Shown here piece by piece: positions 27,331 to 46,001 of a stretch of 46,001 nucleotides of DNA; position 1 is the first letter of the stretch, and each line of letters opens with the position of its first letter. The position numbers and the translations under genes are program-made. Under the pieces are notes generated by a model. It was not told the origin of the DNA. It saw only the letters and a list, made by a program, of their open reading frames with translations, and made no database searches. The DNA is from Ruminococcus sp. UBA5884. Its GTDB lineage: Bacteria; Bacillota; Clostridia; Oscillospirales; Ruminococcaceae. The stretch lies in contig DJFA01000104.1 in the NCBI GenBank assembly GCA_002431975.1, positions 5,666 through 51,666 of the forward strand, read 5' to 3'.

Positions 27331-27360
27331 TTGACATAGTGCTAAATGATAGGATATAAT
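27331..27360 (+). promoter_or_regulatory. Near-consensus sigma-A promoter of the NRPS cluster
   Basis: TTGACA-18 nt-TATAAT, 176 nt upstream of the first cluster gene. Confidence 0.6.
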
Positions 27361-27403
27361 AAATATAAATATTAGAAAAATAAACGGGATTGCTATGCAA
27401 TAT

Positions 27404-27516
27404 GGTTAGCTTATGCTAACTTTATGAAATGCAGTTAGTCTTCGCTAATCAAGCAGTTCTGCAATTTTGAGTTGTTCATTTTTATAAATGCACGCAACAG
27501 TTAGCTTGAGCTAACT
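27404..27516 (+). promoter_or_regulatory. Three copies of a GTTAGC-N4-GCTAAC palindrome/hairpin in the 5' leader of the NRPS operon
   Basis: 27405-27420 is GTTAGCttatGCTAAC. 27434-27449 is GTTAGtcttcgCTAAT (degenerate). 27500-27515 is GTTAGCttgaGCTAAC, ending about 6 nt before the AGAGGAG RBS. Confidence 0.6.
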
Positions 27517-27535
27517 ATATAGAGAGGAGTGTTTT

Positions 27536-27772
27536 ATGACAGATACAGAAAAAAAAGTCTTTGATGTATGGGCAGAGGTTTTTGAACGTGATGATTTCGG
27601 AATTGATGATGATTTTTTTGAAATCGGCGGGGATTCGATGAAAGCGATGAAGATATATATGCGTCTTACAGAAAATATCGCTGAAGTCAATATTGATGAT
27701 TTTTTTGAATCTCTGACAATCAGGAGTATTGCAGAAGTAATTGATAAAAAATACAGTAAAGGTGATGAATAA
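27536..27772 (+). CDS. Stand-alone peptidyl/aryl carrier protein
   Basis: 78 aa with FFEIGGDSMKAMKI (Ser codon 27635-27637). Confidence 0.85.
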   Translation: MTDTEKKVFDVWAEVFERDDFGIDDDFFEIGGDSMKAMKIYMRLTENIAEVNIDDFFESLTIRSIAEVIDKKYSKGDE

Positions 27773-42355: not shown

Positions 42356-42368
42356 TATGAAAATCATG

Positions 42369-42390
42369 GGGCGGGCAATGCCCGCCCTTT
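42369..42390 (+). terminator. GC-rich hairpin with a short T tract (weak terminator or attenuator inside the cluster)
   Basis: GGGCGGGC-AAT-GCCCGCCC followed by only TTT. It lies between the permease and the T-C gene. Confidence 0.45.
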
Positions 42391-42416
42391 GAAAATAACA
42401 GACTGGGAGCTGAAAA

Positions 42417-43862
42417 ATGGAAGACAAAATAAAAGCAGTTACGGATATCTGGGGAGATGTTTTCGGAAAGGAAAATACAAATCCCGATGATAATTTTTTT
42501 GACCTCGGCGGAGATTCTATCATGGCTCTTAAAATGATGGAGCTTCTCAGACGCAAAGGCTATACAATAAGCCTTATGGATGTTTTTGATGACCCTACTC
42601 TTGAGGGCATAATTGAAGCAGTTGTTTCCATTGAAAAGGATTCATCTGCAAATACCCTGACTGAAGAACAGCAGAATACATATCCTGCCTCGAATCAGCA
42701 GAAATGGTTTTTTAAGAATATAAGAACAGGCAGAGATGAATGGTGTGAATATGTTATTCTCTCGCCAAAAAATGAAAAATTTCCTGCTCCTGAAAGAGCA
42801 GCTGAATTTCTGTTTGAAAACAGGCTTTTCAGAAATTACAGTATGGTATTTAAGAATAATGAACTGTATTTTGAAGTATCTGATAAAATGCCGCCGGTTA
42901 TTTGTACTGATAACTTTTCCGTTGATGAATGCAGGAGAATTATGAGTGAAAATATCCGTATCAAAGACGGCATAACAAGCTGTATGGTCTATGATAAATC
43001 AGGAAATATTGCTCTTATAATACACCATCTTTTTTCAGATGCAGTGTCCATTCAGAATATTATAAGTGTTCTTGATGAATATGAAACTGAATCCGACTAT
43101 ACCGATATGCTTTATGCAACTTATGCCTGGAAAAAGCATGATGAGGAAAACAGTACTCCTTTTGATATTAAATTGTATGATGAGGATAATAATGCAGAAT
43201 ACCTGTCTGCTGAAAGGACAGTCATATCAGATACAGCCATATACGACAAAATTACGGAAATATCGCATGAATGGGGAGTTACACCGGAGTGTCTGCTTCT
43301 CAGTGTTCTGAAAGAAGCTTCAGAGAATATTCTCATGTCACCTGTTATAGAAATTGAAAGAATAGGCAGGGATATTTCAGGAGAATGGAACAGAATATGC
43401 GGCTGGATAAGCTATTCAAGAAATATCAGTTTTTCAGATATAAACGGCTGTGAAATCAGGGAAAATGCCCGTATTATTCATGAGATTCTCAGCAAGCCTT
43501 CAAAAGATGATGAAGATACTGTACTCAACAAGCCGGTTTCTTCACTTTCATGGAACTATATCGGCAATATGGACAGCAGCATTGATTTTAATAACTGCAT
43601 GATAAGCGGTTTTGGTCAGTTCAGCGGTGAGAAATCAGGACGCTTTTCGCCTGCATACTGTGCAGTTTATTTCAGGGACGGAAAACTTGTATGCAGTATA
43701 AACTATGATTCTTTGAAATACAGCGGCGAAGATACAGAGAAATTGCAGAAAAATATACTTACAGCTCTTGAAAATCTGATTTCAGGCTTTGAAATGAAAA
43801 AAAATGAGGAATTAAGCTCTATCTATGAAATATTAGGAGGAATCAGTATTGAAGATAATTAA
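42417..43862 (+). CDS. Carrier protein-condensation (T-C) didomain protein
   Basis: 481 aa with FFDLGGDSIMALKM (Ser codon 42516-42518) followed by a C domain carrying HHLFSDAVS (43023-43040). Confidence 0.85.
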   Translation: MEDKIKAVTDIWGDVFGKENTNPDDNFFDLGGDSIMALKMMELLRRKGYTISLMDVFDDPTLEGIIEAVVSIEKDSSANTLTEEQQNTYPASNQQKWFFKNIRTGRDEWCEYVILSPKNEKFPAPERAAEFLFENRLFRNYSMVFKNNELYFEVSDKMPPVICTDNFSVDECRRIMSENIRIKDGITSCMVYDKSGNIALIIHHLFSDAVSIQNIISVLDEYETESDYTDMLYATYAWKKHDEENSTPFDIKLYDEDNNAEYLSAERTVISDTAIYDKITEISHEWGVTPECLLLSVLKEASENILMSPVIEIERIGRDISGEWNRICGWISYSRNISFSDINGCEIRENARIIHEILSKPSKDDEDTVLNKPVSSLSWNYIGNMDSSIDFNNCMISGFGQFSGEKSGRFSPAYCAVYFRDGKLVCSINYDSLKYSGEDTEKLQKNILTALENLISGFEMKKNEELSSIYEILGGISIEDN

Positions 43863-46001
43863 GATAAATTCTATTACTCCTGTGCAGTCAGGAATGCTTT
43901 TCCAGTATATGCTGACCAATAACAAATCATTGTATATGGGAACGGAACGGTTTGACTTTGAAGGCAATATAGATATGGAAGCATTTGAAGCTGTACTTGC
44001 TGATTTGTCAGATAAATATGAAATATTCAGAACGAATATTATTTATGAAAAACTTGAAGAACCAAAAAGCGTTGTGCTGGATAAGAGAAAAATTCCTTTC
44101 AGACATTTTGAAACAAACAGCTCTGAAGAAAAAAACAGACTGGCTGAAAAGATTAATGAAGAATGCTTTGAAAAAGGTTTTGACCTTCAGAAAGATGCTC
44201 TTTTCAAAATTTATCTCATTCAGACAAACGGTGACAGTACAATGCTGTTTTCATTCCATCATATTCTGCTTGACGGATATTGTGCGGCAATGATTGCAGA
44301 TATAATAATGAACAGCTATGGCAGAAATATTTCAAAGGAAAATGAATATGTGCCGTTTTCCGTATATCAGGACTGGCTTAAAAAACAGAATATCAGTGAA
44401 AGCCGCAGATACTGGGATAATCTTTTAAGCAATGTTTCTGATGTTCATAAGCTTGAACTCGTACAGTTTTCCAGCGACAGGGACAGAAATAACGGATATC
44501 TTTCCATGAATATTGAATTTTCGGAAGATGAAACAAAAAAACTTTCAAAGATTGCCGCAGATAACCATACAACACTTAATATATATATGCAATGGCTCTG
44601 GGGACTTACTCTTTGCAGGAATTTTTCTGCTGAAAAGGTGTCATTCGGCACAGTAGCCGCATACAGACCGGCTGAAATGGAAAATTCAGAAAAAATTCTC
44701 GGCCCTATGATAAATACTATACCGGTTGTATTCTCATATGACAACAATGAGAGTATAGGCGGGCAACTCTGGAATTTCAGCAGAACATTTGTTGAATCAA
44801 TGGCAAATTCATGGATAGGTCTTGGAGAAATTCAGAAAAGTATACCTGACTGCGAAAATATTATTGACCATCTTTTTGTATATGATAATTTTCCTGAAAT
44901 GGATTTCAGAGGAATAGAAGACAGCACAGGCTTTAAGATAAAGGATTTCTGTCTTGAGGAAAGAACGGAATATCCTCTTACTCTTGAGGTTTCAAAACCT
45001 GATAATCTCAGAATAAGATTCAGCTATGACAGCAGTATTTATTCAGGTGAGAGCATAAAAAGACTTGCCGCATTATACAAGACTATATGTATAAACAGCT
45101 TTGACGCTGAAAAACCATCTGAAATAAAGAATGTAACTGATGATTTTAAAATCCGCACAGAGCATGAAAAGGAAAAAGTCAGAGCTTCATTCAAATCCGG
45201 AAGTCTTTCCGAAAGATTTGCATATATTGCAAAAAATTATGCAGATAAGCCGGCAATCGAATTTAACGGAAAAATTCTTTCATTCAAAGAAACAGATGAA
45301 CTCAGCGACCGCCTTGCATGGTATCTTAAAAATTCATACGGTATATCAGAAGGTGAGAGAATAGCAATTGATATAACATCTTCAATTGAAGTAATCATAT
45401 CCATACTTGCAATAATAAAGCTTGGCTGCTGTTATGTTCCGTTTGATTTGCTCCTGCCTGAAAAGCGTCTTGAAAGCATTATTGAAGATGCTTCACCTGC
45501 GGCAATACTTATATTCGGAGAAAAAACAAAGGATTTCAGTATTAAAAGTATAAATATTTCACTTGATGAGCTTGAAAATATATCTGTTCCGTCAGATGCG
45601 GTATTCAGAGCGGAAAGAAATACTGAAAGTGCCGCTGATATCATGTTTACTTCAGGCACTACAGCAAAGCCTAAAGGAGTTATTATAAAGGACGGCGGAA
45701 TTCTCGGACTTACTGTTGACCCTGATTTTATTGATTACAGCAAAATAAGCTGTCAGTTTCAGGACGCTTCAATTGCTTTTGATGCAACATTGTATGAAAT
45801 ATGGAGTGCATTGCTCAACGGAAAGAAACTTGTTGTAATTGACAGGAATACTCTGCTTTCTGTTGACAGGTTTGCAGAAATGATATCTGAAAACAAAAAC
45901 TGCTCAATATTTCTTACAACAACTCTTTTCAATAATTTTGTATCCCAGAATCCGGAGATATTCCGTGATGCGTCCTATGTAACAACAGGAGGAGAAAAAT
46001 T
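43849..46001 (+). CDS. NRPS (C-A...), 5' part only, runs off the window and is absent from the supplied ORF track
   Basis: I read the frame codon by codon from TTG 43849 (8 nt after AGGAGG) to 46001 and found no stop. C-domain motifs: SITPVQSGMLFQY and SFHHILLDGYC (44257-). A-domain motifs: LSFKETDELSDRLAWYL, IMFTSGTTAKPKGV, FDATLYEIW. Confidence 0.88.
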   Translation, partial: MKIIKINSITPVQSGMLFQYMLTNNKSLYMGTERFDFEGNIDMEAFEAVLADLSDKYEIFRTNIIYEKLEEPKSVVLDKRKIPFRHFETNSSEEKNRLAEKINEECFEKGFDLQKDALFKIYLIQTNGDSTMLFSFHHILLDGYCAAMIADIIMNSYGRNISKENEYVPFSVYQDWLKKQNISESRRYWDNLLSNVSDVHKLELVQFSSDRDRNNGYLSMNIEFSEDETKKLSKIAADNHTTLNIYMQWLWGLTLCRNFSAEKVSFGTVAAYRPAEMENSEKILGPMINTIPVVFSYDNNESIGGQLWNFSRTFVESMANSWIGLGEIQKSIPDCENIIDHLFVYDNFPEMDFRGIEDSTGFKIKDFCLEERTEYPLTLEVSKPDNLRIRFSYDSSIYSGESIKRLAALYKTICINSFDAEKPSEIKNVTDDFKIRTEHEKEKVRASFKSGSLSERFAYIAKNYADKPAIEFNGKILSFKETDELSDRLAWYLKNSYGISEGERIAIDITSSIEVIISILAIIKLGCCYVPFDLLLPEKRLESIIEDASPAAILIFGEKTKDFSIKSINISLDELENISVPSDAVFRAERNTESAADIMFTSGTTAKPKGVIIKDGGILGLTVDPDFIDYSKISCQFQDASIAFDATLYEIWSALLNGKKLVVIDRNTLLSVDRFAEMISENKNCSIFLTTTLFNNFVSQNPEIFRDASYVTTGGEK

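Follow-up and report, generated by a model that had tools for sequence, protein, structure and literature searches.

This analysis concerns a biosynthetic gene cluster in a 46,001-nucleotide stretch of DNA (hereafter, the window) from Ruminococcus sp. UBA5884, namely positions 5,666 to 51,666 of the forward strand of contig DJFA01000104.1 (assembly GCA_002431975.1). A listing of open reading frames (ORFs) together with Pfam scans places the cluster in one plus-strand operon that runs from 27536 to the edge of the window. The operon is probably ~27 kb long, with its first two-thirds in the window, and belongs to an uncultured Ruminococcus of the rumen; it would encode a single non-ribosomal assembly line whose product is a short peptide rich in cysteine. 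The gene set and order, the motifs, and the gene overlaps reported in an initial annotation of this DNA are all present in the ORF calls, Pfam matches, and translations, and its docking domain, embedded methyltransferase, four discrete thioesterases, free carrier protein, and MacB-like transporter are real. The Clostridia-like host that it proposed agrees with the deposition of the window proteins as "hypothetical protein [Ruminococcus sp.]" from metagenome-assembled genomes (MAGs).

The operon begins with T0 (27536..27772), a free carrier (T) protein of 78 amino acids (aa) with a GGDS phosphopantetheine site (PP-binding, 2e-12). The next gene (27772..28863) encodes a 363-aa NAD(P)H oxidoreductase of the saccharopine dehydrogenase (SDH) fold, here called SDH-like (Sacchrp_dh_NADP, 36.3 bits). 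Two thioesterase (TE) genes follow: TE1 (28887..29618; PF00975, 4.7e-35) is a type II thioesterase (TEII) with a Ser nucleophile (GHSMG), and TE2 (29615..30379; PF00975, 3.6e-25) belongs to the same family and has a Cys nucleophile (GHCIG). Two large synthetases come next, both assigned by Pfam, by typing of their heterocyclization (Cy) domains, and by the specificity codes of their adenylation (A) domains. N1 (30388..34530; 1380 aa) has the order Cy-A(MT)-T, where MT denotes an inserted methyltransferase, and N2 (34527..37871; 1114 aa) has the order TubC_N-Cy-A-T and no release domain. Downstream of them lie TE3 (37890..38561; PF00975, 2.5e-19), a TEII with a Ser nucleophile (GHSMG), and TE4 (38591..39334; PF00975, 5.8e-37), of the same family with a Cys nucleophile (GHCMG). 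The remaining genes encode an ABC ATPase of the MacB/LolD/DevA type (39426..40124; ABC_tran, 5.9e-37), a 745-aa MacB/BceB-like permease with two FtsX domains (40118..42355; FtsX twice, 66.9 bits), and T-E (42417..43862; PP-binding, 8.4e-15), a 481-aa protein that joins a carrier without an A domain to a divergent epimerization (E)-like domain. The 5' part of a third synthetase, N3 (43849..46001; Pfam), shows a condensation (C) domain of the D-donor type followed by an A domain; the window ends within this gene.

Adjacent genes mostly share 1-14 nt or lie less than ~30 nt apart, and the widest gaps, of ~60-90 nt, precede the ABC ATPase and T-E genes. The overlaps are 1 nt for T0/SDH, 4 nt for TE1/TE2 and for N1/N2, 7 nt for ABC/FtsX, and 14 nt for T-E/N3; TE2 is translationally coupled to TE1, and SDH-like to T0. 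Base composition is even along the window. T0 has no cognate A domain and is kept at the head of the operon in the relatives L001, L008, and L010. The Pfam and ORF scans of the window found no stand-alone A domain, no cis TE or reductase (R) release domain, no oxidase (Ox) domain, and no phosphopantetheinyl transferase (PPTase). Two of the absences first listed change beyond the window: that of an uptake gene, since a YbtPQ-like ABC pair follows N3, and that of a PPTase, the gene for which adjoins the cluster in one relative.

The subtypes of the C-type domains were inferred from which solved structures score best in sequence searches of the Protein Data Bank (PDB). For the N-terminal domain of N1 (~30388-31680), the best match is the Cy2 domain of BmdB (1.1e-63), followed by EpoB, HMWP2, FmoA3, and PchE, and the C domain of SrfA reaches 9e-7. 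The corresponding domain of N2 gives 8.6e-62 with HMWP2/Irp2 against 3e-5 with the C domain of LgrA. Thus, the matches of high significance (1e-62 to 1e-64) are to Cy structures only, and ordinary C domains score at about 1e-5 to 1e-7. A catalytic Thr and Asp align with the BmdB pair, which we take to be T1196/D1226 (the positions come from the alignment); they lie in PAVCTC and QTPQVMLD in N1, in PYVFTS and QTPQVFID in N2, and in PIVFTS and RTPQVYLD in the second module of N3. In place of HHxxxDG, the pattern DxxxxD is found in N1 (DMMIMD) and in the second module of N3 (DAVIMD). On this typing, both N-terminal domains are true Cy domains, as had been proposed.

The Stachelhaus codes of the A domains, read by alignment, are DLYNMSLIW for N1, DLYNMSMIW for N2, and DLYNLSLVW for the second A domain of N3 (N3-A2), and were judged against the pattern DLYN[LM]S[LM][IV]W-K. 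The alignment reproduced the known code of its GrsA reference. Published Cys codes include DLYNMSLI of MtaC and DLYNMSMI of HMWP2/AngR, and those of CtaC and PchF are also listed (Table 1, PMC3672683); the three codes of the cluster are identical or near-identical to these. By this comparison, the A domains of N1 and N2 carry Cys codes identical to published ones, N1 that of MtaC and N2 that of HMWP2/AngR, which bears out the Cys activation first predicted for them.

N1 continues with its MT (~33499-34032) and T (34309-34488) domains and ends in a docking tail, ...EFGEI, and N2 opens with a TubC_N beta-hairpin dock (34572-34703; PF18563, 52.3 bits, cut-off 26). The tail, E[FY]GEI-COOH, is invariant in five orthologues, including a relative in which the order of the N1 and N2 genes is reversed. 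A predicted docking of N1 to N2 via the EFGEI tail and TubC_N is therefore well supported. The MT is inserted between A8 and A9, and its best PDB matches are C-methyltransferases, with CurJ (1.5e-39) followed by AprA, DisA, PsoF, and LovB; judged by these matches it is of the C-methyltransferase type. In thiamyxin biosynthesis, modules that combine Cy and C-methyltransferase domains give methyl-thiazolines (PMC10100342). In a human-gut lineage N1 is without an MT, and hence methylation varies among the relatives.

The contig could be followed past 46001, as the initial annotation had advised. Contig L003 is 100% identical to window positions 45001-46001 and, on this identity over the last kilobase, extends the window and completes N3. 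The full N3 has 2434 aa and, by Pfam, the order C-A-T-Cy-A(Cys, MT)-T with no TE or R domain; two ABC_membrane/ABC_tran genes directly follow it. N3 starts with TTG, 8 nt after AGGAGG. Its second condensation-like domain carries the Cy motifs FPLNNVQVAYLSGR, DAVIMD, PIVFTS, and RTPQVYLD. For the code of its first A domain, DAYFTGATY, no substrate match was found. The full cluster then comprises three Cy-A(Cys)-T modules, those of N1 and N3 carrying an MT insert, and because the third module lies in N3, three consecutive rings are predicted rather than the two adjacent rings of the earlier prediction.

The protein T-E, which occurs with identical sequence on several public contigs, had been read as a T-C protein. 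Pfam finds its carrier domain (42435-42623) and no other domain, and the match to TIGR01720 is weak. The remainder carries the E-type motifs QKWFF, IHHLFSDAVS, and SWNYIG, and EGHGRE reads ERIGRD. With the C-terminal part alone, the sole PDB match is the E domain of TycB3. A profile of four orthologues matches two PDB entries and no others: TycB3, in its E domain (3.3e-4), and the BacC fragment 9rde, at residues 114-437 (3.6e-4); the first C domain of N3 (N3 C1) matched residues 480-886 of 9rde, from which the N-terminal part of 9rde is inferred to be the E domain of BacC. The best PDB matches of N3 C1 are the C domains of TycB1, SrfA-C, McyB, and BacC (1e-42 to 1e-53), and the LgrA C domain gives 1e-16. 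We take the C domains of TycB1, SrfA-C, and McyB to be of the type that accepts D-configured donors, and that of LgrA to be of the L-donor type. In place of T-C, these comparisons point to a carrier with an epimerase-like domain that feeds a C domain of the D-donor type. T-E would then be a loading carrier without an A domain, from which N3 receives a D-amino acid, a reading held with moderate confidence since the similarity to E domains is weak.

The cluster recurs in other genomes. The whole gene order is found again, with amino-acid identities of 38-92%, in independent contigs from the rumen and the human gut, and the order SDH-TE1-TE2-N1-N2-TE3-TE4-ABC-FtsX-T-E-N3 is found on many human-gut metagenome contigs at 45-78% identity. 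In this human-gut lineage (L008/L009) SDH has a T0 gene ahead of it, and one human-gut orthologue of SDH-like is present on 671 contigs. Taken with the Pfam E-values across the cluster (1e-12 to 1e-73), this recurrence of gene order in independent contigs shows that the arrangement is not a chance pattern. The closest genome relative is L001, in which N1 is 77% identical and an extra Ser-type thioesterase gene (16146-16862) precedes T-E. Two further relatives, L012 and L074, are colinear, with the order SDH-TE1-TE2-[C-A-T-E][Cy-A(MT)-T-TE(Cys, GWCVG)-T]-N1-N2; the synthetases in question lie at 10786-20457 in L012 and at 4765-10008 in L074. L074 was reached through fragment P0093, which came from a word-index search with a 101-aa fragment of N1 that returned fragments only. 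No characterised counterpart of the cluster was found in the literature, in keeping with the earlier failure to name a matching pathway.

The transporters bear on the role of the product. The NCBIfam models nearest to the ABC ATPase are LolD, MacB, and DevA, all below their cut-offs; the permease gives 23.1 bits with MacB_PCD, under the cut-off of 27, and no NCBIfam match, and ABC_tran and the two FtsX domains pass. Among solved bacterial structures, the best relative of the downstream ABC half-transporter is YbtPQ (281 bits), and IrtA also scores high. YbtPQ is the importer of yersiniabactin and IrtA that of mycobactin, and chains of reduced and unreduced thiazolines are classic metal ligands; the nearest known chemistry, that of pyochelin, yersiniabactin, and coelibactin, binds metal. 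In L074, a gene for a ZinT/YodA-family lipoprotein (17517-18188; lipobox LMAGC; Pfam, 47.4 bits, cut-off 27) lies between N2 and the ABC/FtsX genes, where the window has TE3/TE4. From these comparisons, the product is most likely a metallophore, possibly one for zinc; each of the three hints, namely the chemistry, the ZinT gene of L074, and the YbtPQ-like ABC genes, is weak.

Alternatively, the product could be an antimicrobial or signalling peptide, with the MacB/BceB-like pump and the ABCB pair serving export and self-protection. Double-FtsX ABC systems and ABCB half-transporters are common exporters, neither a metal-responsive regulator nor a substrate-binding protein was found in the window, and thiangazole and the thiamyxins are bioactive compounds and not siderophores (PMC10100342). 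We regard this as a serious alternative, though the less likely one in view of the ZinT-family lipoprotein within the cluster of a relative, of YbtPQ and IrtA as the nearest solved bacterial ABC relatives, and of the reductase and Cy logic that is common to pyochelin, yersiniabactin, equibactin, and sorangibactin.

In the window, the candidate for a reductase of that kind is SDH-like. This protein matches PF03435 (36.3 bits, cut-off 25.1) and carries the motif GCGGRIG; no NCBIfam model matches it, TIGR01761 included, and a sequence search of the PDB returns Rossmann-domain matches only. Its homologues form ten clusters in 5.8 billion proteins, and all three that were examined sit in this cassette. 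A Foldseek search with its AF2 model (pLDDT 80.5) gives carboxyspermidine dehydrogenase, L-Lys dehydrogenase, and saccharopine reductase, with TM scores of 0.65-0.72 to 8h4z, 8deb, 3abi, and 2axq (E ~1e-17). As modelled, SDH-like has a complete two-domain imine-reductase fold, and its structural relatives are NAD(P)H enzymes that act on C=N/C-N bonds. In L002 (Lachnospiraceae), where N1 is 64% identical, SDH is absent and a TIGR01761 thiazolinyl imide reductase is found fused to an MT (240.9 bits, cut-off 188.8); N2 of L002 also bears a cis TE, and the one TEII there is of the Ser type, an arrangement that is pyochelin logic. The gene is less of an oddity than it first seemed: its Pfam family is reported, with no assigned role, in the Cy-containing metallophore clusters of equibactin (EqbM) and Clostridium kluyveri (CKL_1509) (PMC3672683), and the sorangibactin member, SrbE, is essential together with two MTs (PMC10127202). 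Based on the imine-reductase fold, the TIGR01761 swap in L002, and the presence of the family in such clusters, we favour the view that SDH-like acts in trans as a thiazoline (imine) reductase.

SDH-like might instead tailor the amino acid bound to T0 or make a building block, by reductive N-alkylation or amine oxidation, with no thiazoline reduction. The closest folds act on amine/aldehyde imines of free metabolites, SDH-like is coupled translationally to T0, and an Irp3/YbtU-type reductase stands beside the SDH-family protein in sorangibactin and equibactin (PMC10127202, PMC3672683), so that the two enzymes need not be equivalent. Such a role is nevertheless unlikely: SDH and the TIGR01761 reductase are complementary among the close relatives read, the cluster has no other reductase, and sorangibactin has two thiazolidines to go with its two candidate reductases (PMC10127202).

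Regarding the order of the assembly line, we infer T-E, N3, (T0), N1, N2 as the only linear order consistent with all the order evidence, in which the step from N3 to N1 is deduced from the colinear genes of L012 and L074. The genes could also be divided into two separate small assembly lines, each with its own transporter. In the first, an unlinked adenylating enzyme would load T0, and N1 and N2 would make a pyochelin-like bis-thiazoline using TE1/TE2 and SDH; in the second, T-E and N3 would make a D-Xaa-Xaa-thiazoline tripeptide using TE3/TE4. The layout lends itself to this division: A-less carriers, Ser/Cys TE pairs, and transporter sets each number two and fall into two blocks; moreover, N1 and N2 of L002 come with a cis TE and a reductase of their own, and N3 does not appear in the 24 kb read there, and in L028 TE4-ABC-FtsX has no T-E or N3 in the 7 kb downstream. 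Two lines are improbable, however, given that genes like N3 are fused in line directly upstream of N1 in L012 and L074, that T-E and N3 are present with the cassette in all long contigs of the window type, whether from rumen or human gut, that reach far enough downstream, that N3 is without a release domain, and that no enzyme to activate a starter for T0 was found in the window or in any relative read.

The four TEs score 70.9-128.5 bits against a PF00975 cut-off of 26.4, each with a C-terminal GxH. With its counterparts at three other loci each shares 38-84% identity, against only ~20-34% with the remaining TEs of its own cluster, and the order of nucleophiles is GHSMG, GHC[IA]G, GHSMG, and GHCMG in every locus compared. 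It follows from the identity pattern and the alternating nucleophile that there are four distinct functions, two of them with Cys. The two TE pairs of the initial annotation are thus correctly counted as four discrete enzymes, but they are four orthologous groups that alternate between Ser and Cys, not redundant pairs. The best PDB matches of TE2 are RedJ and RifR, and its Cys is kept in the orthologues of L001, L008, L010, and L012. In L012 and L074, the Cys-type TE domain lies mid-line between two carriers and directly before N1, which starts with Cy; as far as we are aware, no T-TE(Cys)-T arrangement has been described. In L074, the one relative read far enough downstream, free T0, free T-E, TE3, and TE4 are all absent. 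The (amino)acyl-shuttling enzymes CmaE, SyrC, and the TEII LgnA carry their groups from carrier to carrier (PMC8748450), and thioester exchange onto a Cys-TE is energy-neutral (PMC6668435). This supports a division of labour in which TE2 and TE4 would serve the two A-less carriers and TE1 and TE3 would then edit and release.

It is rather improbable that the Cys-type TEs are instead release catalysts like ObiF, SulM, and the sorangibactin TE, responsible for an unusual off-loading (to a thiolactone, to a strained ring, or by an external nucleophile): although all characterised Cys thioesterases consulted are release enzymes with an essential Cys (PMC6668435, PMC10127202), N2 and N3 are without cis release domains, and free thiols would be available in the product only if some Cys residues stay uncyclised, two Cys and two Ser enzymes exceed what release needs, the Cys-type TE of L012/L074 is not terminal but stands between carriers before the next Cy module, and TE3/TE4 are absent from L074, the one relative read that far, in which the E domain is joined in cis to a synthetase and a free T-E gene was not seen.

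A Cys-type TEII is not peculiar to this cluster; that idea was rejected, as Cys is present in 41 of the 150 best library representatives of TE4. The library also holds synthetase-sized proteins with two tandem TE domains, both with Cys (P0114, P0116, P0151, P0173, and P0194). A different gut cluster, on a human-gut contig of 215 kb (L054; 4248-15535), has a Cy-A-T synthetase followed by an adjoining pair of a Cys-type and a Ser-type TE and by two ABCB genes. The pairing of Ser and Cys TEs may be a wider theme.

The working model of a single assembly line is as follows. T-E would carry the D-amino acid, which N3 would extend by one amino acid and then by the first Cys ring; from there the chain would pass, possibly via the free T0, to N1, which would add the second Cys ring, and N1 would dock by its EFGEI tail to N2 for the third. 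The predicted product is D-Xaa-Xaa-(methyl)thiazoline-(methyl)thiazoline-thiazoline-COOH, in which the C-MT-type domains would alpha-methylate two rings and the SDH-fold enzyme would reduce one thiazoline C=N to a thiazolidine, in the place of PchG/YbtU. TE2 and TE4, with their Cys nucleophiles, may act as carrier-to-carrier transacylases that serve the A-less carriers T0 and the T of T-E, while the Ser enzymes TE1 and TE3 would edit and hydrolytically release. The MacB-like pump would export the product, and the YbtPQ-like ABC pair is a candidate importer.

Several observations weigh against this model. The route from N3 to N1 is drawn from colinear genes in a relative lineage and not from a docking signal in the window. 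N2 reads NMLIVD (35157-35174; residues 211-216), with Asn for the first Asp of DxxxxD, and its orthologues in L008, L017, and L074 read DMLIVD or DVLIAD; contigs from other samples match the window at NMLIVD, and so it is not a one-off assembly error. The MT of PchF N-methylates a thiazolidine, and since the C-methyltransferase class also includes this PchF-type reaction, N-methylation is an alternative to the proposed alpha-methylation of the rings. The SDH-like gene is an apparent pseudogene in the close relative L001 (1879-2461), where short fragments, 67-83% identical, remain over ~580 bp and the rest of the cluster looks intact. Furthermore, the known clusters with an SDH-family protein keep a YbtU-type reductase too (PMC3672683, PMC10127202). 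TE2 and TE4 are of the TEII family (PF00975) and not of the CmaE/SyrC family, and the known Cys thioesterases, of the ObiF, SulM, and SrbD type, are release catalysts (PMC6668435, PMC10127202). A search for the release TE by likeness to the cis TE of L002 was unconvincing, as the best candidate, TE3, matched over 24 residues only. It is likewise ambiguous whether T0 is the orthologue of the fused tail carrier of L012, which is 25% identical to T0 and 37% identical to the last T of N3. Finally, YbtPQ exceeds Sav1866 only modestly (281 against 252 bits), and the ZinT gene belongs to a relative and not to the window.

The operon is preceded by a promoter of the sigma-70 type on the plus strand (27331..27360; TTGACA-18 nt-TATAAT). 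It had been called near-consensus and in fact fits the consensus fully (12 of 12 positions). Shortly before it (27157-27175) comes a hairpin that resembles a terminator for the preceding gene. The leader of ~175 nt between the promoter and the first gene contains, on the plus strand, three copies of the palindrome GTTAGC-N4-GCTAAC (27405-27420, 27434-27449, and 27500-27515). These are the only three matches in the whole window, all inside 111 nt, and the same palindrome is found upstream of the T0 gene in L001 from the rumen (1575-1590) and in L008/L009 from the human gut (9420-9435 in L008). The folding of the leader has a z of -2.4, and copies 1 and 3 can pair mutually. An Rfam scan of the whole window gave no family at the gathering score, so the leader is not a known riboswitch. 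The palindromes could be an operator for a dimeric regulator or a set of RNA hairpins.

The genes further upstream are unrelated and are not conserved beside the cluster in relatives. Next to the promoter, at 25434-27042, a gene for an ECF-type sigma factor overlaps a 365-aa gene with a C-terminal IseA DL-endopeptidase inhibitor domain, whose product is a possible anti-sigma factor. Membership of this sigma/anti-sigma-like pair in the cluster was considered and is not supported, the upstream genes being different in L008, L010, and L012. On the minus strand, thiC follows an amidohydrolase gene (21366-23593), with no thiamine pyrophosphate riboswitch at the Rfam gathering score, and at 16220-20994 there are genes for a 598-aa FkbH_N-domain protein, a DHHW/AlgX-like protein, and an MBOAT acyltransferase, which resemble a surface-polymer O-acylation system with an unusual FkbH-like partner. 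A plus-strand block at 715-10418, comprising a PP2C phosphatase, a protein kinase, a P-type cation ATPase, three TerD-domain proteins, and a DUF815 AAA ATPase, is a TerD-type stress module. Genes for a release factor and a Na/H exchanger are also present upstream in the window.

The cluster as predicted works like the pyochelin/yersiniabactin/equibactin/coelibactin group, and its consecutive (methyl)thiazolines are like those of thiangazole/thiamyxin. It resembles pyochelin (PchE/F/G/C) and yersiniabactin (HMWP2/HMWP1/YbtU/YbtT/YbtPQ) in its run of Cy-A(Cys)-T modules with identical Cys codes, in having an MT within a Cy module, in a putative NAD(P)H imine reductase that would act in trans (L002 has one of the true PchG/YbtU family), and in its discrete type II TEs and YbtPQ-like ABC pair. 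In contrast to these two systems, which have an aryl starter and an aryl carrier protein, it starts at an A-less T-E and a D-donor C-A-T module; it would form three Cys rings in a row and has no polyketide synthase (PKS) part and no cis TE; its reductase is of the saccharopine dehydrogenase fold instead of Gfo/Idh/MocA; and it has four trans TEs, two with a Cys nucleophile. No stand-alone AMP-binding gene, as for an aryl acid, and no gene of the isochorismate pathway was found in the window, its extension, L008, L010, L012, or L074. Three features of the aryl-capped siderophore family, namely an aryl starter, a TIGR01761 reductase, and a cis TE, are lacking (N2 and N3 both end in T). In the arrangement of its helper enzymes the cluster departs from its known relatives, and no description of it was found in the literature.

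Thiazoline assembly lines had been regarded as best known from Proteobacteria, but Firmicute precedents exist in equibactin and the C. kluyveri cluster (PMC3672683). Equibactin (Streptococcus equi ICESe2), C. kluyveri CKL_1504-1523, and coelibactin/sorangibactin all come from Cy-containing synthetase clusters of Firmicutes or other non-Proteobacteria. Equibactin, C. kluyveri, and sorangibactin also have an oxidoreductase of the SDH Pfam family (EqbM, CKL_1509, and SrbE), a likeness by Pfam family and not by direct alignment. Sorangibactin has a rare, essential Cys thioesterase (PMC10127202), and coelibactin is regarded as a zincophore (PMC10127202, PMC3672683). These clusters differ from that of the window in that they have retained an aryl cap, a cis TE, and a reductase of the YbtU/Irp3 type, and are without an alternating Ser/Cys set of four trans TEs. 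In thiangazole and thiamyxin, Cy and C-MT modules give serial methyl-thiazolines derived from 2-methylcysteine (PMC10100342). Their assembly lines are large myxobacterial hybrids of non-ribosomal peptide synthetase and PKS with Ox domains and a cis TE, whereas the cluster has no Ox or PKS part and has a reductase. CmaE and SyrC are Cys alpha/beta hydrolases, and LgnA is a Ser TEII. Like the proposed TE2 and TE4, these are discrete alpha/beta-hydrolases serving carriers or modules that lack an A domain of their own (PMC8748450). TE2 and TE4 have the Cys nucleophile of CmaE/SyrC and the TEII fold of LgnA; PF00975 membership with a Cys nucleophile is a combination not known from shuttling enzymes.

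It is tempting, if still speculative, to see here a pathway to a thiazoline/thiazolidine metallophore, perhaps a zincophore, that would be the first from strictly anaerobic Clostridia of the gut and common in Ruminococcus of the human gut and the rumen. It would follow a logic so far undescribed, in which Cys-TEIIs would shuttle between A-less carriers, an intermediate would be parked on a free carrier, and an SDH-fold reductase would replace PchG/YbtU; the T-TE(Cys)-T unit fused in some relatives and split into a TE and a free T here would be part of the same tentative picture. Thiazoline metallophores such as yersiniabactin and pyochelin shape gut metal competition and virulence and are known mainly from facultative pathogens. 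The cluster offers a test case both for the role of four trans Ser/Cys TEs in a line with two A-less carriers and for product off-loading by a line that has no cis release domain. If the SDH-fold enzyme is a second, convergent thiazoline reductase, EqbM, CKL_1509, and SrbE would also be explained. If fibre-degrading commensals of the genus Ruminococcus have a related and conserved pathway, this would point to scavenging of metal, perhaps zinc, or to chemical warfare by core anaerobes of the gut.

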